Origin: a virus
Taxonomy: Duplodnaviria > Heunggongvirae > Uroviricota > Caudoviricetes
Strand: one strand, 5' to 3'
DNA: 64,000 nucleotides
IMG/VR virus record: IMGVR_UViG_2563366895_000001
Span: 1 to 64,000 of that record
Below, piece by piece: positions 1 through 9,973 of this stretch. The notes under the pieces were generated by a model. That model was not told where the DNA came from. It saw only the letters and a program-made list of their open reading frames with translations, and searched no databases. Position numbers and translations under genes: made by a program. The stretch's first letter is position 1, and every line of letters begins with the position of its first letter.

Positions 1-286
1 ATTGAAAATTTATCGGTTTCTTTATTAGGATGAAGTAACAGACTCCTGACATAGCTACCACCATTCTAAAGAGGCTTTGAACAAGAATAGAGATACAGCA
101 GCACTGAAATCAAGAAGTTGTGCAAAAAATAAAAATATTGATTTGTGTCACAGTTGCTGCTTTTTATTATTGAATTTTTATCAATTTCACTACAGATAAA
201 TAAATTGACATAGTGTGTAACCCCTGTAAATATAAAGGGCACTTTATCTGCTAAAGCCAACCAATTTAAAAATAGAGGGTGGGAGC

Positions 287-976
287 ATGGAAGTTATCTA
301 CATAGTAGAACCAATCATTTCCACAAGCACTAACAAGTTGATAGCAGTGGAAGTGTTGAGCAGATTTTATTCCAACGAGGGGGCTATTCTTTCTACTCAG
401 AAAGTATTAGGTATGTTTACAAGCAAGATGAAGATTAACTTGCTAAAATCTCAACTTAACACAATAATCAAATATAAGTGTTTTTTTGAATGCCATAATA
501 TATTATGCTCTATCAATGTAGATTATGATACCTGTTTATATATATATGGCAATAAACAAATTCAAGAACTACTAATAAACAATAAATTTATAGCGATTGA
601 GATATCAGAAAACTATCCTGATTTAAGCGATGAGGATTACGTCATATCCTTTCTACTGACTTTGACAGATAATGTTTGGCTTGATGATTTTGGAAGTGGT
701 AACGCCACCATGAAAGCATTAATTAAAAATAAATACCATGCAATAAAACTTGATAAGTCATTTTTTCAAGAGCATATGATTAAGCCTCATTTTGATGTCA
801 TTATTAGCAATTTAAAAAAGTTATGTCCGAATATCATCGCTGAAGGCGTCGAAAACATTGATTGTCATAAGTTATCAAAAGGGATAGGGCTATGGGGCGC
901 TCAGGGATATTTTTTCCCATCAATTCCGCTGACGGAGATTGAGTCCATAGATAGTAAGTGGCTATCAGATTTATGA
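287..976 (+). CDS. Stand-alone EAL-domain protein, probable c-di-GMP phosphodiesterase
   Basis: 229-aa ORF with purine-rich RBS (agagggtggga) just upstream; translation carries the EAL-domain motifs in canonical order: EVL, IEISE (ExxE), DDFGSGN, IKLDKSF, AEGVEN, QGYFF; AT-rich, unlike neighbouring backbone genes. Confidence 0.65.
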   Translation: MEVIYIVEPIISTSTNKLIAVEVLSRFYSNEGAILSTQKVLGMFTSKMKINLLKSQLNTIIKYKCFFECHNILCSINVDYDTCLYIYGNKQIQELLINNKFIAIEISENYPDLSDEDYVISFLLTLTDNVWLDDFGSGNATMKALIKNKYHAIKLDKSFFQEHMIKPHFDVIISNLKKLCPNIIAEGVENIDCHKLSKGIGLWGAQGYFFPSIPLTEIESIDSKWLSDL

Positions 977-1029
977 GATGCAGAGAGTTAGGATATTGAT
1001 ATGAACATCTAAGCACCTCATTACTGTGC

Positions 1030-1701
1030 TTAAAAGATGTTATCCTTACCTGTTAATTTACCTTGAGGAACTTTAGTGAGCTCCATCCGATAAAATGCTT
1101 TTATCATATTTACAAATGGCTCATATGGTGAATATTCGTTGTCTTGTTTAGTAACGGTGTCTGTCATTGTCCTGATGTAGTCTGCGCTTACCACGTTGTT
1201 GTATTCTGTTGCGAAGCAGCATAACAACGTCAGAACATGCTCTGTCGTTATTTCGCTCCAGTTGATGTTGAAAAACTCATCGCCTTTTTTATCGTGTTCG
1301 GAATCGAAGATGCTTTGGTGGAGGATGTATTTGCCGGATTCCTTGCGCGGTAACTTGATCGCTTTCTGGCGTTCCAACTCCTTGTAAATCTGCATTGCTT
1401 CAATTAGTACCGGCCTGCCGTTCATGAAGGGATCGCGCAACCTTACACGCTGGCCAACTCGACCGGTAATAAAGCTGTTTTCCTCTTCCACCAGCACGAT
1501 AAAACCCTTTTCCTCTTTTTCTCGCAATTCGCGCAGCAGCTGGAGTTCCATATCGCGGCGGCGTTCAGGGTAGCTGGTCCGCTCAGCCATTATCAGCTCG
1601 TTGTTGATCCATGCAGCAGTCATTGACGCCGGTTTGCCGACGCTCATCGAAACAACGCATATTTTCTTATCCATAGCGCCCCTACAAAAAAGAAAAGCCA
1701 C
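1030..1701 (-). CDS. Hypothetical protein (start uncertain; ATG at 1674 would give 214 aa)
   Basis: 223-aa ORF in six-frame track; no motif recognised by eye. Confidence 0.45.
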   Translation of the reverse strand: MAFLFCRGAMDKKICVVSMSVGKPASMTAAWINNELIMAERTSYPERRRDMELQLLRELREKEEKGFIVLVEEENSFITGRVGQRVRLRDPFMNGRPVLIEAMQIYKELERQKAIKLPRKESGKYILHQSIFDSEHDKKGDEFFNINWSEITTEHVLTLLCCFATEYNNVVSADYIRTMTDTVTKQDNEYSPYEPFVNMIKAFYRMELTKVPQGKLTGKDNIF

Positions 1702-1956
1702 CAGCGGCGGCTTAGCAATACAACTGAAGGTAGCGCCCGGTACTCAGACTGTGCCGTCCATGGAATATTTGAAAAGGGATCCATCCGTACCGGGCTTGAT
1801 GTGATTTTGGCAGAAGTAATTTGTCAGATGTCAATTTTTTTATCTGTAAAAATGCTATAAACCAATATTTCTATTATTTTTTATATGGTTGCAGTAGTAG
1901 AGTCTGGGCTATTCCTGCGTCCGGTCTTGATGACCACAAATCACGGAGATTGATTA

Positions 1957-2511
1957 ATGAAAAATCGTAGTTTCAACATCATCGCTTCTATTGCTATGGC
2001 TCTAATGTTAACAGGGTGTAACCAGTCAGAGATTGATAAACTCTCACTTATCGGTGAAGACAAGAGTTATCTTGAAGAACAGGACGAAGCCACTTTTGAA
2101 AAACGGACTCCAGACATAGAACTTTTTGCATTATACGATAAATCGTCACCTGACGCTCAGGAACCACATACCACAGGAATGTTGATTAATGGCAAGGTTG
2201 AGTTGAGCATGACAACAAAAGTTGGCAAATATACCTTTATGCAATTAGATGAAATGCTTACAAAAGAGTATGGGAAACCTGTTGCGACGAAGGACCATAT
2301 CTTTGATAAGGCTGCAATCTCTGGTTTGGACTGCATTGAAACTAAAACCTGTGGTGCTGGTAAGTATTATGAAGTATTCCGAGGAAAGGATCGGTTTGTA
2401 TTATTGATTAATGGAGCTGGTTATTTGTACGAAAAAGAAGGGGTTGCATTGCTTACTATCACGGACAAACAATTAAAAGTTGCTCGTCTGGAAGAGGACA
2501 AAAAACATTAA
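1957..2511 (+). CDS. Lipoprotein
   Basis: N-terminus MKNRSFNIIASIAMALMLTGC is a signal peptide with L-x-G-C lipobox; 184 aa. Confidence 0.6.
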   Translation: MKNRSFNIIASIAMALMLTGCNQSEIDKLSLIGEDKSYLEEQDEATFEKRTPDIELFALYDKSSPDAQEPHTTGMLINGKVELSMTTKVGKYTFMQLDEMLTKEYGKPVATKDHIFDKAAISGLDCIETKTCGAGKYYEVFRGKDRFVLLINGAGYLYEKEGVALLTITDKQLKVARLEEDKKH

Positions 2512-2518
2512 CAAACAG

Positions 2519-2534
2519 GGGCATACGCGCCCCA
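2519..2534. terminator. GC hairpin between convergent genes (possible bidirectional terminator)
   Basis: ggggcatacgcgcccc followed by A/T-rich tract, between the + lipoprotein gene and - ref. Confidence 0.3.
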
Positions 2535-2557
2535 ATATTTTAAAAATAATAAATATA

Positions 2558-3118
2558 TTAGTGCATGATATTTGCCATCTCATAGGCGTCAGCCAGCAAC
2601 TCCATCTCTGACTTGTTCAGCAGGGTGAATTCTTTCTTGCCTCCAACCACACCATCGGCATGAACAGGGACCAGCCAGGGGTATTTTTCTCTTACTTCAG
2701 CCGGTGCTGCATGCTGGTGGTGCCATCTACAAAGGGGCAATTGCTTTTTGTGACAACCCGGCGCGGTACGACCGGAGATATGGTGCAGAGACACCTCTTC
2801 AGATATTACTCCATGCATGTAGCAGGCAATGCAGGGGAGAGTGCCAAGAGCATTGGCGATGGTCCGTTCCTCCGCCGTCGGTGTTCGCCCCTTCAAGCCA
2901 CGAGATTTTATTTTTACCGCACTTTTCCGCGTTTTGCTGGCTGGTGGGCGCTCTTTCTGTTTAGCGATACGGCGGTCGATAGAATCCCGCATTTTCTGAT
3001 ATTGCGATTCTCGCCAGGCGGGGTCAGCCAACTTTTCCCGTTGCCGAGCGATCGCTCGTTCTCTGGCTGCCTTCTGCCACTCGCGGCGCTGTTCAAGTTT
3101 TTGTTCGATTGTTTTCAT
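2558..3118 (-). CDS. ref: Ref recombination-enhancement function, HNH-family endonuclease
   Basis: Begins MKTIEQKLEQRREW at the internal ATG (3118) of the 221-aa track ORF, giving 186 aa; cysteine/histidine-rich C-terminus (CIACYMHG...HHISGR...CRWHH); position downstream of cre as in P1; the upstream ATG at 3223 lies upstream of the promoter/operator. Confidence 0.8.
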   Translation of the reverse strand: MKTIEQKLEQRREWQKAARERAIARQREKLADPAWRESQYQKMRDSIDRRIAKQKERPPASKTRKSAVKIKSRGLKGRTPTAEERTIANALGTLPCIACYMHGVISEEVSLHHISGRTAPGCHKKQLPLCRWHHQHAAPAEVREKYPWLVPVHADGVVGGKKEFTLLNKSEMELLADAYEMANIMH

Positions 3119-3123
3119 ATGGC

Positions 3124-3149
3124 AAAAAAAAGGCGGCCTAATGGCCGCC
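3124..3149 (-). terminator. Intrinsic terminator-like hairpin plus T8 run in the ref leader
   Basis: Minus strand reads GGCGGCCATTAGGCCGCC followed by TTTTTTTT, ending 5 nt before the ref ATG; lies between the putative ref promoter/operator and the start codon. Confidence 0.4.
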
Positions 3150-3216
3150 AATGATGTCAAGGAGTGAAGTAATGGCAACGTCTTCGTAGTTGACAAAAAC
3201 TGCGACTCAATTATAG

Positions 3217-3233
3217 CAACCAATTAGAGCAAT
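3217..3233 (-). promoter_or_regulatory. C1 operator-like site overlapping putative ref promoter
   Basis: Plus strand caaccAATTAGAGCAAT (11 of 17 consensus positions); minus strand has gctataat -10 immediately downstream. Confidence 0.45.
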
Positions 3234-3364
3234 TAAAGTTGTTTATTTATCGCGAATCACATTTTTTCACTTCAGTACCTGTGTGCTATACTCCTTCTTG
3301 ATTGATTGGATGCGGAATACAAACCCGCTCTTTTGTGCAGCCTGGCTCCTTGCCAGGCTTTTTT

Positions 3365-3676
3365 TTATTTCATCATGGAAGCTGTTAACGCTTTGGACCT
3401 TGCTGAACTGATTGAGAGGGCTTTGTCAACGTGCCCCAAAAATTCGCCAAACTCAGACATCACTTTAGCAAAACCGCGCCGTGCTTCTTCCTCGGTGGCA
3501 TTCATCACGAAATGTTCAGCACCACGCATACTTTTGACAGGGAACGCAACGGATATTGAATCAATATCAGGCATTCTATCGCTCAGCTTTACAGTGACAA
3601 TGACGGCTGGCGACTGAATATTAGTGCTTACAGACAGCACTACATATTTTCCGTCGATTTTGAAATCCTTTCTCAT
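3365..3676 (-). CDS. Hypothetical protein downstream of cre (c8-like position)
   Basis: 103-aa ORF; operator-like site at 3693-3709 just upstream. Confidence 0.45.
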   Translation of the reverse strand: MRKDFKIDGKYVVLSVSTNIQSPAVIVTVKLSDRMPDIDSISVAFPVKSMRGAEHFVMNATEEEARRGFAKVMSEFGEFLGHVDKALSISSARSKALTASMMK

Positions 3677-3692
3677 ATGTCACCATAAATAT

Positions 3693-3709
3693 CAAAGAAT
3701 TAGAGCAAT
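3693..3709 (-). promoter_or_regulatory. C1 operator-like site (partial match)
   Basis: caaagaATTAGAGCAAT between the cre stop and the 103-aa ORF. Confidence 0.35.
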
Positions 3710-3726
3710 CATTTACGCGTTAATGG

Positions 3727-4758
3727 CTAATCGCCATCTTCCAGCAGGCGCACCATTGCCCCCGTTTCACTATCCAGGTTACGAATGTAGTTCATGACAA
3801 TATTTACGTTGGTCCAGCCGCCAGCTTGCATGATCTCCGGTATAGAAACTCCGGCGCGGGCCATATCTCGCGCGGCACCGACACGGGCACTATGTCCAGA
3901 CCAGGCCAGGTATCGCTGACCAGAGTCATCTTTTGCCCCGTAAATCAATCGGTGAGTTGCTTCAAAAATCCCTTCCAGGGCGCGAGTTGATAGCTGGCTG
4001 GTGGATGATGGCGCGGCAACACCATTTTTTCTGACGCGGCAAAACAGGTAGTTATTCGGATCATCAGCTACACCAGAGACAGAAATCCATCGCTCAACCA
4101 GTTTAGTTACCCCCAGGCTAAGTGCCTTCTCTACACCAGCGGTGCTAACCAGCGTTTTCGTTCTGCCAATATGGATTAACATTCTCCCACCGTCAGTACG
4201 TGAGATATCTTTAACCCTGATCCTGGAAATTTCGGCTATACGTAACAGGGTGTTATAAGCAATCCCCAGAAATGCCAGATTACGTATATCCTGGCAGCGA
4301 TCGCTATTTTCCATGAGTGAACGAACCTGGTCGAAATCAGTGCGTTCGAACGCCAGTGCCTGTTTTGCACGTTCACCGGCATCAACGTTTTCTTTTCGGA
4401 TCCGTCGCATGACCAGTGAAACAGCATTGCTGTCACTTGGTCGTGGCAGACCGGACCGACGATGAAGCATATTTAGCTGGCCCAAATGTTGCTGGATAGT
4501 TTTCACTGCCAGACCGCGCGCCTGAAGATATAGAAGATAATCGCGAACATCTTCAGGTTCTGCGGGAAACCACTTCCGGTTATTCAACTTGCACCATGCC
4601 GCCCACGACCGGCAAACGGACAGAAGCATTTTCCAGGTATGCTCAGAAAACGCCTGGCGATCCCTGAACATGTCCATCAGGTTCTTGCGAACCTCATCAC
4701 TCGTTGCATCGACCGGTAATGCAGGCAAATTTTGGTGTACGGTCAGTAAATTGGACAT
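3727..4758 (-). CDS. cre: Cre site-specific tyrosine recombinase
   Basis: 343-aa translation recognised as P1 Cre (MSNLLTVHQNLPALPVDATSDEVRKNLMDMF...; catalytic region ...HSARVGAARDMARAGVSIPEIMQAGGWTNVNIVMNYIRNLD); loxP lies 420 bp upstream. Confidence 0.97.
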   Translation of the reverse strand: MSNLLTVHQNLPALPVDATSDEVRKNLMDMFRDRQAFSEHTWKMLLSVCRSWAAWCKLNNRKWFPAEPEDVRDYLLYLQARGLAVKTIQQHLGQLNMLHRRSGLPRPSDSNAVSLVMRRIRKENVDAGERAKQALAFERTDFDQVRSLMENSDRCQDIRNLAFLGIAYNTLLRIAEISRIRVKDISRTDGGRMLIHIGRTKTLVSTAGVEKALSLGVTKLVERWISVSGVADDPNNYLFCRVRKNGVAAPSSTSQLSTRALEGIFEATHRLIYGAKDDSGQRYLAWSGHSARVGAARDMARAGVSIPEIMQAGGWTNVNIVMNYIRNLDSETGAMVRLLEDGD

Positions 4759-4765
4759 TTAACAC

Positions 4766-4987
4766 TCAGATGATGGTTTTAAGTAAAGTGTACAGGATCG
4801 GCTCTGCCTTTACCTGTTTATGGTTCTCGTCATAGAAACGCCAGCGACCGCGCGTGCGTTCTATTTTCTCTTCACCGCGCGATAATGACAGTTGGCAACT
4901 ATCACGATCAAACCCTTTTGCCCGCCAGTAACCACGGTTTTTCTCAAGCTCAAGATGAGTGGACACTTTAGCAGTTGAATATCCCAT
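4766..4987 (-). CDS. cra: Small ORF between loxP and cre (cra-like, cre-associated)
   Basis: 73-aa ORF ending 8 bp before the cre start, same strand; name assigned from position only. Confidence 0.45.
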   Translation of the reverse strand: MGYSTAKVSTHLELEKNRGYWRAKGFDRDSCQLSLSRGEEKIERTRGRWRFYDENHKQVKAEPILYTLLKTII

Positions 4988-5082
4988 TTTTCACCTCTGA
5001 TTGATTGGTGGTGCTAAGTGCGCTACGCGAAATCTGTAGGACTAACACCGCCAACTTTGCACAGATTTTACGTAGCGCAACC

Positions 5083-5106
5083 TTGATCAAATGATCAAGT
5101 GATCAC
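5083..5106. promoter_or_regulatory. Cluster of three Dam (GATC) sites in the cre upstream region
   Basis: ttGATCaaatGATCaagtGATCac; consistent with the methylation-sensitive cre promoter known for P1. Confidence 0.4.
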
Positions 5107-5176
5107 TATTTGACCTGCTAAGGTATTGAACTGTATGGATTTACAGGTAAATTGATCATATTCAATAACCCTTATT

Positions 5177-5210
5177 ATAACTTCGTATAATGTATGCTAT
5201 ACGAAGTTAT
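5177..5210. other. loxP: loxP recombination site
   Basis: Exact 34-bp ATAACTTCGTATA-ATGTATGC-TATACGAAGTTAT: 13-bp inverted repeats flanking the 8-bp asymmetric spacer. Confidence 0.97.
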
Positions 5211-5270: not shown

Positions 5271-5336
5271 AAATTTAGAGAGAAAAATCCCACTCCACCA
5301 GCTAAAAACTGGATTGTTTTTCATAGTTGTTTGACA

Positions 5337-5353
5337 ATTGCTCTAATAAATTA
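5337..5353 (+). promoter_or_regulatory. C1 operator overlapping a TTGACA -35 box
   Basis: TTGACA followed by ATTGCTCTAATAAATTA, 16 of 17 consensus positions. Confidence 0.65.
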
Positions 5354-5591
5354 TAGTTTTGCCGACGTTACGTAATACGACTTTGGATTCACTATTTAAT
5401 GTGTCTTCAGCGTTGTAGAGCGGCTCAGAAGGAAATGAGCAAACAGGGAAACCTTATACAACGGCATTACAGCTATGCATTGCTCATCTTACACACAGCG
5501 CAATGTTGTTAGATTACCCCAGCATGGATCATGGGTGAAACAGTAGGTCAGAGCTTCAGGCTCTGTGTTGTCAATACAGTGAGGCATAATT

Positions 5592-5801
5592 ATGGCTTTC
5601 ATTCAACCAACCATCGACGACGTTAGACATTGCTCTAACGCTTTATCTGTAGACCCTGCCGAAACCGACGCTGCCCGCGCCATTGCTGAACACTACTCAA
5701 AGATATCCAATCAGGAGTACCGCATCACCCAAGACGACCTGGATGACCTCACTGACACAATCGAATATCTCATGGCAACTAACCAGTTGGACTCACAATA
5801 A
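5592..5801 (+). CDS. coi: Coi, C1 inactivator
   Basis: 69-aa ORF directly upstream of c1 on the same strand, downstream of C1 operators. Confidence 0.8.
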   Translation: MAFIQPTIDDVRHCSNALSVDPAETDAARAIAEHYSKISNQEYRITQDDLDDLTDTIEYLMATNQLDSQ

Positions 5802-5911
5802 ATGCACTAATAAATCTATTATTTTTGTTTGATCCCTCTATAATATAGGTCAGTAATGACCGGTTTTCTCAGCCGGGCGTTATTGACCATGTCAATTCTG
5901 GAGGAGGATCA

Positions 5912-6763
5912 ATGATAAATTATGTCTACGGCGAACAACTGTACCAGGAGTTCGTCAGCTTCAGGGATCTCTTTCTAAAAAAAGCTGTTGCACGCGCCCA
6001 ACACGTTGATACAGCCAGCGACGGTCGTCCTGTACGCCCGGTTGTCGTTCTACCGTTCAAAGAAACTGACAGCATTCAGGCTGAAATTGATAAATGGACT
6101 TTAATGGCGCGGGAACTGGAACAGTACCCAGACCTCAATATCCCAAAGACTATTTTATATCCAGTGCCTAACATCCTTCGCGGTGTGCGTAAGGTTACAA
6201 CTTATCAGACAGAGGCTGTGAACAGCGTCAACATGACCGCTGGCCGCATTATTCATCTGATTGATAAGGACATTCGCATCCAAAAAAGCGCGGGGATCAA
6301 TGAGCACAGTGCGAAATACATAGAGAACCTGGAAGCAACAAAAGAGCTAATGAAGCAGTACCCGGAGGATGAAAAATTCCGTATGCGCGTACACGGCTTT
6401 AGCGAAACAATGCTGCGCGTCCACTACATTTCCAGTAGCCCTAACTACAATGATGGTAAATCAGTTAGTTACCATGTGCCACTGTGTGGCGTGTTTATCT
6501 GCGATGAAACTCTCCGTGATGGAATTATCATCAACGGTGAATTCGAAAAAGCAAAATTTAGCCTTTATGACTCCATAGAACCGATCATCTGCGACCGCTG
6601 GCCGCAAGCAAAAATATATCGCCTGGCAGATATTGAAAATGTAAAAAAACAAATTGCCATCACTCGCGAAGAGAAAAAGGTTAAGTCAGCCGCATCAGTT
6701 ACGCGCAGCCGTAAAACCAAGAAGGGGCAGCCAGTAAACGACAACCCCGAAAGCGCGCAATAA
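5912..6763 (+). CDS. c1: C1 repressor of lysis
   Basis: 283-aa ORF (MINYVYGEQLYQEFVSFRDLFLKKAVARAQHVD...), length and context as P1 C1; its operator is scattered across the window. Confidence 0.9.
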   Translation: MINYVYGEQLYQEFVSFRDLFLKKAVARAQHVDTASDGRPVRPVVVLPFKETDSIQAEIDKWTLMARELEQYPDLNIPKTILYPVPNILRGVRKVTTYQTEAVNSVNMTAGRIIHLIDKDIRIQKSAGINEHSAKYIENLEATKELMKQYPEDEKFRMRVHGFSETMLRVHYISSSPNYNDGKSVSYHVPLCGVFICDETLRDGIIINGEFEKAKFSLYDSIEPIICDRWPQAKIYRLADIENVKKQIAITREEKKVKSAASVTRSRKTKKGQPVNDNPESAQ

Positions 6764-6795: not shown

Positions 6796-7911
6796 TTATT
6801 CAGCCGCCACCGGTTTTAACAAGCCAGCATCGAGCAGTTTACGCGTCAACCACTGCTGGCCTTTACCCGTTAATTGAGGCGTCAACCGTATCTGGTAGCC
6901 ATCTTCATCATCCAGCACCACTTCTTTCACCGTGAAATACCCCGCGTTGATGTACTGCTGGAACGGCACATTTTTACGTCCACCGGACGCTATCAGGATG
7001 CCGTTCTCCCGTAACCAGGCAAACAGCGCGTTTTGCTTAAGTCCAACAACCTTTGCAAAATTCCCAATCAGGATCCCTTTAGCTACTGATACCCGGTCGG
7101 CAAAATCGACTTTAGGAGCGGCGGCCACCAGCTGCTGATTTAGCTGGTGGGCTTTCTGTTCCAGAAGCTGCTTTTGTTCAGCCAGTTCGGCAGCCAGGCG
7201 TAGGGCTTCTGGTAATGTTTGGGGGATTGCAACCGGTTGCTGTTCTTTTTGTCGGAAGTAGCTGTCTTCCAGTTTTTCAAAGAATGCCCATGCCTGATCG
7301 GTTTCGATCATTTTAGCGTGGCGGGCTGCGCCGCGTTCCGTCCAGAGGATGAGTGAGCGGGCTTTAGGAGAGATAGGATTTTGTGAGTTACTTAAAGTCA
7401 CTCGCAAATTGTTCAAATCATCTCCAATAACTTTATAGAAATGCTTGCCTTCACAAAAACGTTCAGCATTACGGGAAAAGTTCTTCTTGATGTTATCCGC
7501 ATCTGTCCCATACCCCTTAGCAAGGATCTTAGTTGTCACTACACGCACTCCCAGCCATTCCAGAACGGGAATTTCATCAGACTGATTCTGAACAACCACC
7601 AGCTCCGATTCCTGAACTGAAGGTGCATGAGTTTTTTCTGATTTAACGTTAGTTGCTTTCATTCTGTGTGCCTCCTTGCGTGTTTCGGCTGCGACGGTTG
7701 CGTAATTCAGATGCCCCTGTTCGAGCAGGTATTCGCGGATATCAGACAACAGAATGCGGTGAACAGCGTTCTTGTCCTTTCTCCGGTAAAGTTGTTTGGT
7801 GATCATGAAGTAGTTGGCAATAACGCCCGGTATATCCCTGGTACTGATACAGGATGTGTGCTGTTCAATTGCCTCAATCATTTCTTCACGGGTGACTAAT
7901 GACGTTCTCAT
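6796..7911 (-). CDS. Antirepressor-like protein (KilA-C type C-terminal domain), paralog of immI Ant
   Basis: 371 aa; C-terminal about 95 aa nearly identical to Ant at 53426-54463 (GILIGNFAKVVGLKQNALF...GYFTVKEVVLDDEDGYQIRLTPQLTGKGQQWLTRKLLDAGLLKPVA) and related to KilA. Confidence 0.7.
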   Translation of the reverse strand: MRTSLVTREEMIEAIEQHTSCISTRDIPGVIANYFMITKQLYRRKDKNAVHRILLSDIREYLLEQGHLNYATVAAETRKEAHRMKATNVKSEKTHAPSVQESELVVVQNQSDEIPVLEWLGVRVVTTKILAKGYGTDADNIKKNFSRNAERFCEGKHFYKVIGDDLNNLRVTLSNSQNPISPKARSLILWTERGAARHAKMIETDQAWAFFEKLEDSYFRQKEQQPVAIPQTLPEALRLAAELAEQKQLLEQKAHQLNQQLVAAAPKVDFADRVSVAKGILIGNFAKVVGLKQNALFAWLRENGILIASGGRKNVPFQQYINAGYFTVKEVVLDDEDGYQIRLTPQLTGKGQQWLTRKLLDAGLLKPVAAE

Positions 7912-8129
7912 AGTCCCTCCTGAGCAGAAGCGTTAACAGGGAGGCACCAGTAACTGAGAGAGTTGCGCGAATCAGTGGAAAAGCGGGCAGAGAAAATGCA
8001 GGGAGCGTCAGGAAGCTGAGAACGGGCCTCATCTTCTGTCGGTGCAATAACGAAGTGATAGTGACGTTTCTGGCAGGAATAGAAGCGCCAGATGAATTCA
8101 GGATGAGTTGGGGTAGGGACAGTAGCCAT
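7908..8129 (-). CDS. Icd-like small protein (paralog of the icd at 54460-54681)
   Basis: 73 aa; shares EFIWRFYSCxKxHYHFVIAxTEDEARSQLPDxPCIFxARFSTxSRNSLSYW with the other 73-aa ORF; stop overlaps the ant-like start; RBS aaggagg. Confidence 0.55.
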   Translation of the reverse strand: MATVPTPTHPEFIWRFYSCQKRHYHFVIAPTEDEARSQLPDAPCIFSARFSTDSRNSLSYWCLPVNASAQEGL

Positions 8130-8313
8130 AATGGCAGCCTCCTTTGACTAAGTTAAGGAGCTACCGCGTGAGGTCTCAATCTCAATGGCGGTAGCACTGA
8201 CTGGGTTGAGACTACCGGCGTCAAAGGGAACCGGCCTGCCTTTCGGCAGCCCAGCCAGCACTACCATTGATTTCGGAGCTAAACGCTACGTATGGCTGTG
8301 CGATGGCATGACA

Positions 8314-8450
8314 CAAAAAAAGACGCTTTCGGCGTCTGTGTCGCCTTTGACATTATCCGGGGTCTCAATCCCGGCACCCGTTTTAATGAGGTGCCTGATA
8401 AGCATAAACCGAAAATGCCTCAAGGCGCAAGAGGTCAGGTTCAATGTAAC
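8314..8450 (-). ncRNA. c4-like antisense RNA region of the second immI-like module (approximate)
   Basis: Leader between the C1 operator (8469-8485) and the icd-like start; minus strand has hairpin CCGGGATTGAGACCCCGG, then terminator GACGCCGAAAGCGTC plus T7, then downstream complementary GTCTCAAC near the RBS. Confidence 0.35.
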
Positions 8451-8468
8451 ATCGGTAGTTAAAAAACA

Positions 8469-8485
8469 CAATTTATTAGAGCAAA
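8469..8485 (-). promoter_or_regulatory. C1 operator upstream of the icd/ant-like module
   Basis: cAATTTATTAGAGCAAa. Confidence 0.55.
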
Positions 8486-8488
8486 TAT

Positions 8489-9973
8489 TCATTCATTAAG
8501 CCATGCCAGAGCTTCATCAACCTGCGCTTCGTCTTCGACGCTAAGCACTTCATCCTGGGGAACATAATCCGCCAGCATAGCGAAACAATATGTATCCCAA
8601 TGGTCTGGTGAGTGCAGGTTGAGTTTTTTCTTCATATCCTCCTTACTCATCACCTTCCATTGACCTGCGGAGTTAATCCCTACAGGGATTTTCGACGCTT
8701 CCTCAATAGTTTCATTACCCTTATCCAGTCTCATACGACCAGATTTTACGGCCTCTGCGGCTTGAACGTTGGCATAAGCACGTTTATCAAAGTACAGGCT
8801 CTTATCTTCACGGCTATGCATCTTTTTACCCCAGCGTATGCGCTGTACGGTAATACCATAATACTCGTACATCAGATCCGCCGTTGCTTTACCCAGGCCA
8901 TCGCCGTCTATCGCTATGGTGATATTTGGGAATCGCTCAGGATTACATTCTGCGAAAATTTTGGCGGCAAGCTGCGTTTCTGTAACGTCTGTGTATTCCA
9001 GCATTCGATAGTTGATTACACGGCGTTTATTTCGCTGGCCGGACACCATCATGATATTGATAACGGACTTATCCCGTCCTGTACCACCAGCAACGTCCAC
9101 ACATGCAAGCCAGCCCCATCCTTTGGCAATCTTGACTTTCCGCCGCGTCGCACGTTCAACCTCATCACGTCCAAGAAGGAAGCCGTCCTGTGATTTAGGG
9201 AATAGCCCGCGTACCTTAATCATGTACATAGGGTTATCACGCCCGCCGTACTCCGCCAGCTTCATTTTGATAAATGCTGGCGTTACCAGCGGTGATTCCT
9301 CACTGTTAAGCGTGATCGCCGTATAAACGCCATCAGGGTTACCAGGACGCTTGGCCAGTTTATGGTGAGTATCGTAGAAATAGCCGCTTGGGCGTGTAGG
9401 CTGTGACAGTAATAAGATGCGGTTATCCTGTCCGGTAAGAGCACCAGTGATGATACCGAAAGCTCTATCACTGACACCGGAGGCTTCATCGATAATATAC
9501 AGAAGATGATCTGCGTGTTCACCGGCGAGAGCTTCTTCACTTCCCAGACGAAAGCCCTTCGGTACTACAGTCCATACACCTTTACCAGTAACCTCATAGA
9601 AAGCGGTTTCTGTCAGAACAAAATAATCAGCAAGCCATGGAAAACGGCTGGTGGCAGTAGCCCAGTTTATCTTGATGTACTTGAATATACCGGTCATTAC
9701 CTGCTGAATTTTGTTCGCAACGATAATGGCGCGGGCACCGGGATACATGATTATGAACAACATGATCATGATAGAAGTCATGTCTGATTTCCCGGTACCG
9801 TGACCAGACGAAACAGATGTCTTGCTACCCTGTTCCTGCACAGACTCAATAATCAGATCCTGCTGCCAGGTAGGTGTTTTGCCGAACAAAACATCAGCGG
9901 CCGCAATCCAGTCATAACGATATAGCGCCACCAGCTCGCGCCAACGTGGATCCGTTACGCAACTTCTGGCCAT
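8489..9973 (-). CDS. pacB: PacB, terminase large subunit
   Basis: 494-aa ORF whose start overlaps the pacA stop; gene order as in P1. Confidence 0.85.

Follow-up and report, generated by a model that had tools for sequence, protein, structure and literature searches.

PdeH, SfaY, YdiV and STM1697 belong to a small clade of enterobacterial single-domain EAL proteins in which both enzymes and non-enzymatic inhibitors of FlhD4C2 occur. SfaY (PdeY), which is encoded at the end of the S-fimbrial operon of extraintestinal pathogenic Escherichia coli (ExPEC), has been reported as a functional stand-alone phosphodiesterase (PDE) (PMC6385356, PMC5635171), whereas YdiV and STM1697 neither bind nor cleave cyclic di-GMP (c-di-GMP) (PMC5622320). 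In P1-like elements, the res-mod region, RD-1, has been described as a hot spot of low guanine-plus-cytosine (GC) content with exchangeable contents (PMC9603915, PMC6906374). Here we analyzed the left end of a 64,000-nucleotide stretch of viral DNA (positions 1 to 64,000 of IMG/VR record IMGVR_UViG_2563366895_000001; the whole stretch is referred to as the window), which belongs to a P1-type phage-plasmid in an orientation reverse to that of the P1 map and which carries, in the place of the EcoP1I res-mod genes, a gene for an EAL protein that belongs to this clade. Neither the EAL gene nor its AraC-family partner gene is named as RD-1 content in PMC9603915 or PMC6906374, and papers on the diversity of P1-like plasmids and on a P1-derived IncY plasmid make no mention of an EAL gene. 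The gene is annotated as encoding an EAL domain and the hot spot is recognized; the value of the present analysis lies in the characterization of the locus, not in a new principle. The explanation best supported by our data, and one that we hold to be probable, is that the gene supplies an active, sensor-less c-di-GMP PDE as lysogenic-conversion cargo.

A stand-alone EAL protein with a complete active site

The EAL gene (Table 1) encodes a protein in which the Pfam EAL domain (PF00563; 65.5 bits, with a cut-off of 31.3) was matched from residue 8 to residue 210 of 229, corresponding to positions 18-233 of the 236-position profile, so that there is no room for a sensor domain. The protein carries EVL (E22), N77, E105xxE108, D133 and D134 followed by FGSGN, K154 followed by LD, E186 and E189 in EGVE, and Q206 followed by GYFF. 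The ten catalytic residues (E22, N77, E105, E108, D133, D134, K154, E186, E189 and Q206) align to those of YahA/PdeL and PdeH, and the family, which spans 98% to 23% identity and includes SfaY, shows no variation at these positions. The initial annotation of the locus had described a stand-alone EAL protein with every one of the catalytic motifs it listed and without a sensor domain; this description was confirmed by the Pfam match and by the alignments, and no substitution of a catalytic residue was found when one was looked for in the alignments with YahA/PdeL, PdeH and the family.

A search of 1.84 billion cluster representatives returned 94 related proteins at E ≤ 1e-10, most of them stand-alone and 219-265 aa in length. 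The active sites were then compared in an alignment of 104 short stand-alone sequences, comprising 95 relatives of 210-300 aa and nine reference sequences (the query, PdeH, YdiV, STM1697, SfaY and four closer family members). All ten catalytic residues were kept in 53 of the 104 sequences. Among the closest full-length relatives of the P1 EAL protein the ten-residue set is mostly complete, and some of them differ solely at E189; YdiV is altered at four of the ten positions and STM1697 at three, whereas the P1 EAL protein is altered at none. Members of this clade readily lose catalytic residues that have become dispensable, so the retention of these residues in the P1 EAL protein argues that catalysis is the selected function. 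Comparison with the homologues on IncF and IncX plasmids gave ratios of nonsynonymous to synonymous substitution rates (dN/dS) of 0.11-0.14, indicating purifying selection, and the dominant cluster, with 1,040 member sequences, has an intact open reading frame (ORF).

An AlphaFold 2 model built on the family alignment had a predicted local distance difference test score (pLDDT) of 92.8 and a predicted template modeling score (pTM) of 0.89. Foldseek matched this model with a probability of 1.0 to YdiV, STM1697, YahA, RocR and many other EAL structures. The best superposition was with YdiV (TM score of 0.88, root-mean-square deviation of 1.9 Å) and STM1697, followed by the active EAL domains of YahA and RocR.

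Of the described members of the clade, PdeH (YhjH) shares with the P1 EAL protein a single EAL domain (255 and 229 aa, respectively) and all catalytic residues, and it was the best NCBIfam match (NF008617, E = 8e-27). However, the score of 94.1 bits is below the equivalog cut-off of 190, indicating that the P1 EAL protein is not a PdeH orthologue; it is 25% identical to PdeH of MG1655, has EP where PdeH has QP, and is encoded by an AT-rich, plasmid- or phage-borne gene. SfaY has the same EP motif and the same DDFGSGNA sequence in loop 6, and it is likewise accessory and horizontally acquired. It differs in being 23-24% identical and chromosomal, in a fimbrial operon with SfaX, whereas the gene of the P1 EAL protein has an AraC-type regulator gene as its partner and lies in a phage-plasmid hot spot. 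PdeU1, PdeU2 and PdeU3 of uropathogenic E. coli (UPEC) were considered as the identity of the protein and were rejected, as their motifs read QP...DDFGTGYAT.

More distant EAL homologues, at 30-50% identity on contigs of E. coli, Pantoea ananatis and Paramixta, adjoin surface-adhesion or virulence loci. These contexts include serine protease autotransporters of Enterobacteriaceae (SPATE), a pap-like fimbrial operon followed by hlyCA, an autotransporter in Paramixta and, in Pantoea, a chaperone-usher operon accompanied by a gene for a TibC-like glycosyltransferase and, downstream, by one for a large protein without annotation. Taken together with SfaY, these neighborhoods suggest by analogy that the usual job of the clade may be the coupling of adhesin expression to c-di-GMP or motility, and the P1 cassette probably derives from a virulence-plasmid module of this adhesin-linked type.

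Two insertions on either side of mat

From its left end, the window carries the 5' end of the AraC-like gene and then, in this order, the EAL gene, mat, the lipoprotein gene, ref, c8, cre and cra. Its positions 1-4975 are 100% identical, without gaps, to sequence from pWL164-2, a plasmid of E. coli WL164 (NZ_CP128644.1). The three ORFs of the initial annotation were verified (229 aa on the plus strand; 223 aa from a GTG, 1030-1701 on the minus strand; 184 aa on the plus strand). Alignment of reference P1 (NC_005856) is confined to window positions 1165-1859 and 2540-3300. To the left of the position equivalent to 1165, P1 has the end of mat and then res, mod::IS5 and lxc, and this 6.4 kb of P1 is swapped for about 1.9 kb in both the window element and P1vir (OP279344). 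The replacement consists of a gene for an AraC-family protein of 233-240 aa, a 234-bp intergenic region, the EAL gene and a divergent 3' end of mat. P1vir OP279344 has the EAL cassette and lacks the lipoprotein insert. These data indicate that the stretch is a mosaic of two independent acquisitions on either side of the backbone gene mat and not one island.

The initial annotation had placed three unrelated genes in a single AT-rich island where P1 has mat and res/mod, with the middle gene listed as an unknown protein. The single island was rejected because the middle gene is mat and because the two insertions differ in their distribution. The AT-richness stood for the EAL gene (32.8% GC) and the lipoprotein gene (38.6%), with the whole window at 47.1%, and failed for mat (45.4%), so that the island resolves into two AT-rich patches around a backbone gene. 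Its further proposals, that the EAL gene is accessory cargo in place of EcoP1I res/mod and that the island may continue past the window start, were borne out by the comparison with P1 and the plasmid distribution, and by the N-terminus of an AraC-like protein encoded at positions 52-1 on the minus strand. In terms of events, an AT-rich segment carrying the AraC/EAL cassette and a divergent mat 3' end would have taken the place of the EcoP1I genes and of the final ~150 nt of mat at RD-1, and a 680-bp lipoprotein cassette would have been inserted separately at the mat/ref junction. The segment occupies the same lxc-mat position as RD-1 of other P1-like phage-plasmids and is AT-rich like it, but the replacement differs from RD-1 as published in extending into the divergent 3' end of mat.

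Table 1. Features at the left end of the window.
Feature	Position	Strand	Basis or remark
Rns/YdeO-like AraC-family gene, first 17 codons (MSGVCYFILIKKPINFQ)	1..52	-	Direct reading; tblastn with the 233-aa protein of P1vir OP279344
Divergent intergenic control region of the AraC-like/EAL cassette	53..286	.	Blocks conserved among the P1, IncF and IncX1 versions (alignment)
21-nt element TACAGATAAATAAATTGACAT with consensus -35 TTGACA (206-211), followed 17 nt later by TGtAAATAT	191..211	+	Candidate promoter of the EAL gene
Stand-alone EAL-domain protein, 229 aa, predicted c-di-GMP phosphodiesterase	287..976	+	Pfam EAL; phrog_32988; catalytic residues; AlphaFold 2 model; dN/dS
Remainder of the res-mod replacement	977..1164	.	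Cassette homology stops at ~979; from there to 1164 a divergent, colinear mat 3' allele; P1 homology from 1165
mat (maturation control protein), P1 backbone gene	1030..1674	-	Identity to P1 Mat; phrog_1837; annotated in relatives
Second copy of the 21-nt element, 20/21 matches	1828..1848	-	Equals the -35 region of P1 Pmat (P1 annotation of Pmat/LPmat and alignment)
680-bp single-gene cassette at the mat/ref junction	1860..2539	.	P1 and P1vir align up to 1859 and again from 2540
Predicted lipoprotein, 184 aa	1957..2511	+	Lipobox; phrog_15156; homologues
GC-rich hairpin GGGGCATACGCGCCCC, terminator-like on both strands, just 3' of the lipoprotein gene, within the insert	2518..2533	.	
ref (RecA-dependent nuclease), P1 backbone gene	2558..3118	-	Pfam RecA_dep_nuc, 167 bits; annotation in relatives

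The plasmid counts showed that the EAL gene is accessory, not backbone, and that the two insertions are independent. In PLSDB, cre was found in 701 plasmids, and about 135 of these (about 19%) carry the P1-type EAL gene at ≥95% identity, so that the gene is not a conserved backbone gene of all P1 relatives; another 67 plasmids, most of which are conjugative, have a version at ~70% identity. Only 23 plasmids carry the lipoprotein gene at ≥95% identity, and both insertions occur together with ref in only nine. P1-like plasmids do not always inherit the EAL gene, the mat 3' allele and the lipoprotein gene together as a single block. The EAL gene is present in 137 (2.5%) of 5,426 complete E. coli genomes, and 134 of the 138 copies are plasmid-borne.

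The record OP279344.1 carries the label "del res del mod" from its deposition; the sequence is that of a laboratory P1vir stock with which published Argonaute studies were done. Its positions 7351-8976 hold the AraC-like and EAL cassette in place of EcoP1I res-mod, and such P1 lysates deliver the EAL gene. In the sequenced P1-like phage vB_EcoM-Ro157c2YLVW, the EAL homologue (5305-5993) shows a 1-nt gap when aligned to the window and has been annotated as encoding a hypothetical protein of 199 aa; this copy is probably truncated.

The AraC-like/EAL cassette and its control region

A 1.61-kb cassette consisting of the AraC-like gene and the EAL gene recurs at ~72% identity on an IncX1 plasmid and on an IncFIA/FIC plasmid of enterotoxigenic E. 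coli (ETEC), where it immediately follows eatA. The homology spans the intergenic region, again at ~72% identity, and stops 3 nt past the EAL stop codon. The AraC-family protein is whole (233-240 aa) in relatives, and the remainder of its gene lies beyond the window start. Its best NCBIfam match was YdeO (126 bits), followed by GadX (72 bits), with HilD and HilC also matched, and the profile matches in the PDB were GadX, Rns, CsvR and ToxT. The protein thus resembles the Rns/CsvR/GadX/YdeO regulators, with Rns and CsvR matched over the full length (E ~2e-21), but it is below every equivalog cut-off and its gene is a pseudogene in the plasmid lineage of the window. Intact copies of the gene are found in some P1-like plasmids as well as on the IncF and IncX1 plasmids, and its dN/dS of 0.08-0.11 across lineages indicates purifying selection.

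The intergenic region contains a 21-nt element (TACAGATAAA[T/A]AAATTGACAT) that occurs exactly twice in the 64 kb, with a chance expectation of 0. The two copies flank the convergent EAL/mat pair as an inverted repeat (95%; Table 1). The TTGACA of this element is absent from the IncF and IncX versions of the cassette. We infer from the sequence that TTGACA-17-TGtAAATAT at positions 206-240 is a candidate AraC-independent sigma-70 promoter for the EAL gene. By the same reasoning, the EAL gene may have gained an AraC-independent promoter in the P1 lineage that made the regulator dispensable. A generic promoter scan showed no enrichment over shuffled sequence, and an Rfam scan of window positions 1-3400 gave nothing above threshold. 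No C1 operator (≤3 mismatches) was found within window positions 1-5200, and no late (-22) box of the LPmat type was found upstream of the EAL gene or the lipoprotein gene on the coding strand; the lack of both at the cargo genes fits moron-like expression outside the lytic programme.

Function of the EAL protein

By analogy with PdeH and SfaY, the P1 EAL protein would hydrolyze c-di-GMP to pGpG in a Mg2+/Mn2+-dependent manner. Carriage of the plasmid-prophage would then lower cellular c-di-GMP, resulting in less curli/cellulose matrix, a released YcgR brake on the flagella and the loss of further c-di-GMP outputs, and the EAL gene would be a lysogenic-conversion (moron-type) gene and not one with a phage lytic function. 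Several observations weigh against an active PDE expressed in the lysogen. Loop 6 reads DDFGSGNATMKAL (DDFGSGNAT) instead of the canonical DFG(T/A)GYSS; SfaY has the same GSGNA variant, and the inactive YdiV has a similar loop, GAGNSTMKAV. The N-terminal motif is EP instead of QP, the nearest solved relatives are the non-catalytic STM1697 and YdiV, truncated or frameshifted EAL copies occur in some lineages, the AT-rich gene could be subject to silencing by H-NS, and a full-text literature search on P1 and EAL found no characterization of the EAL protein. The remaining points concern the partner regulator. The AraC-like gene carries a 1-nt frameshift in pWL164-2 (NZ_CP128644.1 3043-3766), where the NCBI annotation pipeline PGAP marks it "frameshifted", has a 1-nt deletion in NZ_LR883966, is present as an unannotated, frameshifted 722-nt copy in many sampled P1-like plasmids with the cassette, and in P1vir (OP279344.1 7351-8052) carries a 21-nt in-frame deletion in the first helix-turn-helix. 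These lesions show a regulator gene that is decaying in the P1 lineage. The initial annotation had called the PDE constitutive, which is not established, as the conserved cassette includes a divergently transcribed Rns/YdeO-like AraC regulator gene that is frameshifted in the plasmid identical to the window. With the partner regulator a pseudogene in this plasmid, expression of the EAL gene would need the cassette's own sigma-70-like promoter. The same lesions, together with the frameshift in phage Ro157c2YLVW, the EAL fragments found elsewhere and the low GC content of the gene, would also be expected if the cassette were a silent or decaying passenger in the window's plasmid, with the EAL protein neither expressed nor of benefit. 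We consider this unlikely, as the EAL ORF is intact in the 1,040-member cluster and in at least 129 complete genomes, the P1 lineage acquired a consensus -35 that is missing from the IncF and IncX versions, and the long-term dN/dS of the EAL gene is about 0.12.

A different role for an expressed protein is suggested by its closest solved structures. STM1697 (1e-27) and YdiV (2e-18) were the best sequence matches in the PDB, ahead of YahA/PdeL (3e-8), and the YdiV fold was also the closest (see above); both are compact single domains with a similar GxGN(A/S)T loop. Like STM1697 and YdiV/RflP, the P1 EAL protein might therefore act mainly by binding FlhD and shutting off flagellar genes, with catalysis being secondary or serving as a trigger. 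Of the eleven FlhD-contact residues of STM1697 (V115, L116, L136, V147, F160, K167, L172, L173, K175, H176 and Y180), six are identical or conservative in the P1 EAL protein (F135, I146, F159, K166, V171 and I172), including the central F160 (F159) and L173 (I172), and F168 and F181 of YdiV are retained as well. However, the other five contacts (V115, L116, K175, H176 and Y180) are not conserved, F159 is part of the general KxDxxF motif of EAL domains, and the contact surface is the usual EAL dimer interface. The known FlhD binders are, moreover, degenerate (STM1697 at G134 and G187, YdiV at several positions), whereas the P1 EAL protein and its subfamily keep all ten catalytic residues, and a main role in FlhD binding seems improbable to us. 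The PDE and FlhD-binding models predict opposite motility phenotypes. The protein could also be an active PDE whose value is related to phages, with a drain on c-di-GMP blocking phages that need c-di-GMP-dependent receptors or disarming a c-di-GMP-activated defense. Phage N4 infection requires c-di-GMP, and several E. coli PDEs, when overexpressed, each protect strongly, with efficiencies of plating (EOP) below 8e-8 (PMC7553319). The cassette replaces EcoP1I res-mod and adjoins lxc and the anti-restriction genes ulx and darB. Against this, PADLOC-DB defense models gave no match for the EAL protein, Mat, the lipoprotein or the AraC-like protein, and the cassette lies beside virulence genes on the IncF and IncX plasmids, with distant homologues flanking adhesin or autotransporter loci, which points to cross-talk between adhesion and motility. 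We regard such a phage-related value as very unlikely, and it is just as doubtful, by analogy, that the cassette would be a functional substitute for the displaced restriction-modification system, possibly rewired from AraC control to a Pmat-like promoter.

If the EAL protein is an active PDE, as we favor, roughly one-fifth of P1-like plasmids would supply the host with an extra sensor-less c-di-GMP phosphodiesterase, with possible shifts in the biofilm formation, motility and c-di-GMP-dependent phage susceptibility of lysogens. The P1vir stock of published experiments would then supply it as well, which could quietly confound work with such stocks. The clade further offers a clean natural comparison of catalytically intact proteins (P1 EAL, SfaY and PdeH) with degenerate protein binders (STM1697 and YdiV).

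The mat gene

The gene between the two insertions is located between ref and the res-mod region, with the same synteny as in P1, P7 and P1vir. Read from the annotated ATG at position 1674, Mat has 214 aa and is 85% identical overall to P1 Mat. Over residues 1-161 it matches P1 Mat 38-198 at 100% identity, and the last ~53 aa are divergent but colinear with P1 Mat, at roughly 40% identity by eye. A C-terminal truncation (214 versus 250 aa) was considered and rejected, as the length gap is a matter of N-terminal start annotation and the C-terminus is colinear. A 46-aa ORF at window positions 1644-1784 on the minus strand resembles the annotated N-terminus of P1 Mat (250 aa) in its opening residues, MDPFSNIPWT, and this extension is out of frame with the Mat core in the window element. 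The sequence suggests that the real Mat start is the internal ATG at position 1674.

The lipoprotein insert puts ~700 bp between an Omat-like C1 operator (~2552-2570) and the mat promoter (1790-1850), and the sequence of this operator has diverged from that of P1 in the window element. The mat gene may have lost C1 control in this element.

The lipoprotein insert

The 680-bp cassette holds solely the lipoprotein gene and a hairpin terminator. Its point of insertion, between the end of ref and the mat promoter, is a TAAAAAT microhomology, and the cassette has imperfect 37-nt inverted repeats at its ends. The AT-rich mat/ref junction has been described as an insertion site by Venturini et al. 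(PMC6906374), and P7 carries Tn3 at the same junction. The encoded protein has the lipoprotein signal MKNRSFNIIASIAMALMLTG|C, and the lipobox LTGC (L18, T19, G20 and C21) is invariant in 11 homologues, in agreement with the initial identification of this ORF as a lipoprotein. There is Asn at position +2 and there are two invariant cysteines, and the protein is predicted to be, probably, an outer-membrane, periplasm-facing lipoprotein. The homologues are 62-73% identical and lie on ~110-kb contigs where these are long enough to judge, and copies of the gene at 69-74% nucleotide identity were found on phage-plasmids of the pHCM2/SSU5 type in Salmonella, Citrobacter and Enterobacter. Searches of Pfam, NCBIfam, PADLOC and PDB with the protein gave no match, and its AlphaFold 2 model was unusable (pLDDT 40).

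Cor, Llp, Bor and TraT are lipoproteins of prophages or plasmids. Like them, the window lipoprotein is small, secreted and encoded by a single-gene moron of a temperate element, but it has no detectable sequence similarity to any annotated family. By analogy, a role in surface exclusion or envelope modification might be guessed.

Other features of the element

In pWL164-2 (NZ_CP128644.1 1-2285), the plasmid identical to the window, darB (anti-restriction methylase/helicase) is annotated as frameshifted. To the right of the region described here, matches to the C1 operator consensus with at most three mismatches were found at 14 sites within window positions 5254-55012, where 0.3 would be expected by chance, and these sites, spread over the window, confirm that the P1-type immunity network is intact.

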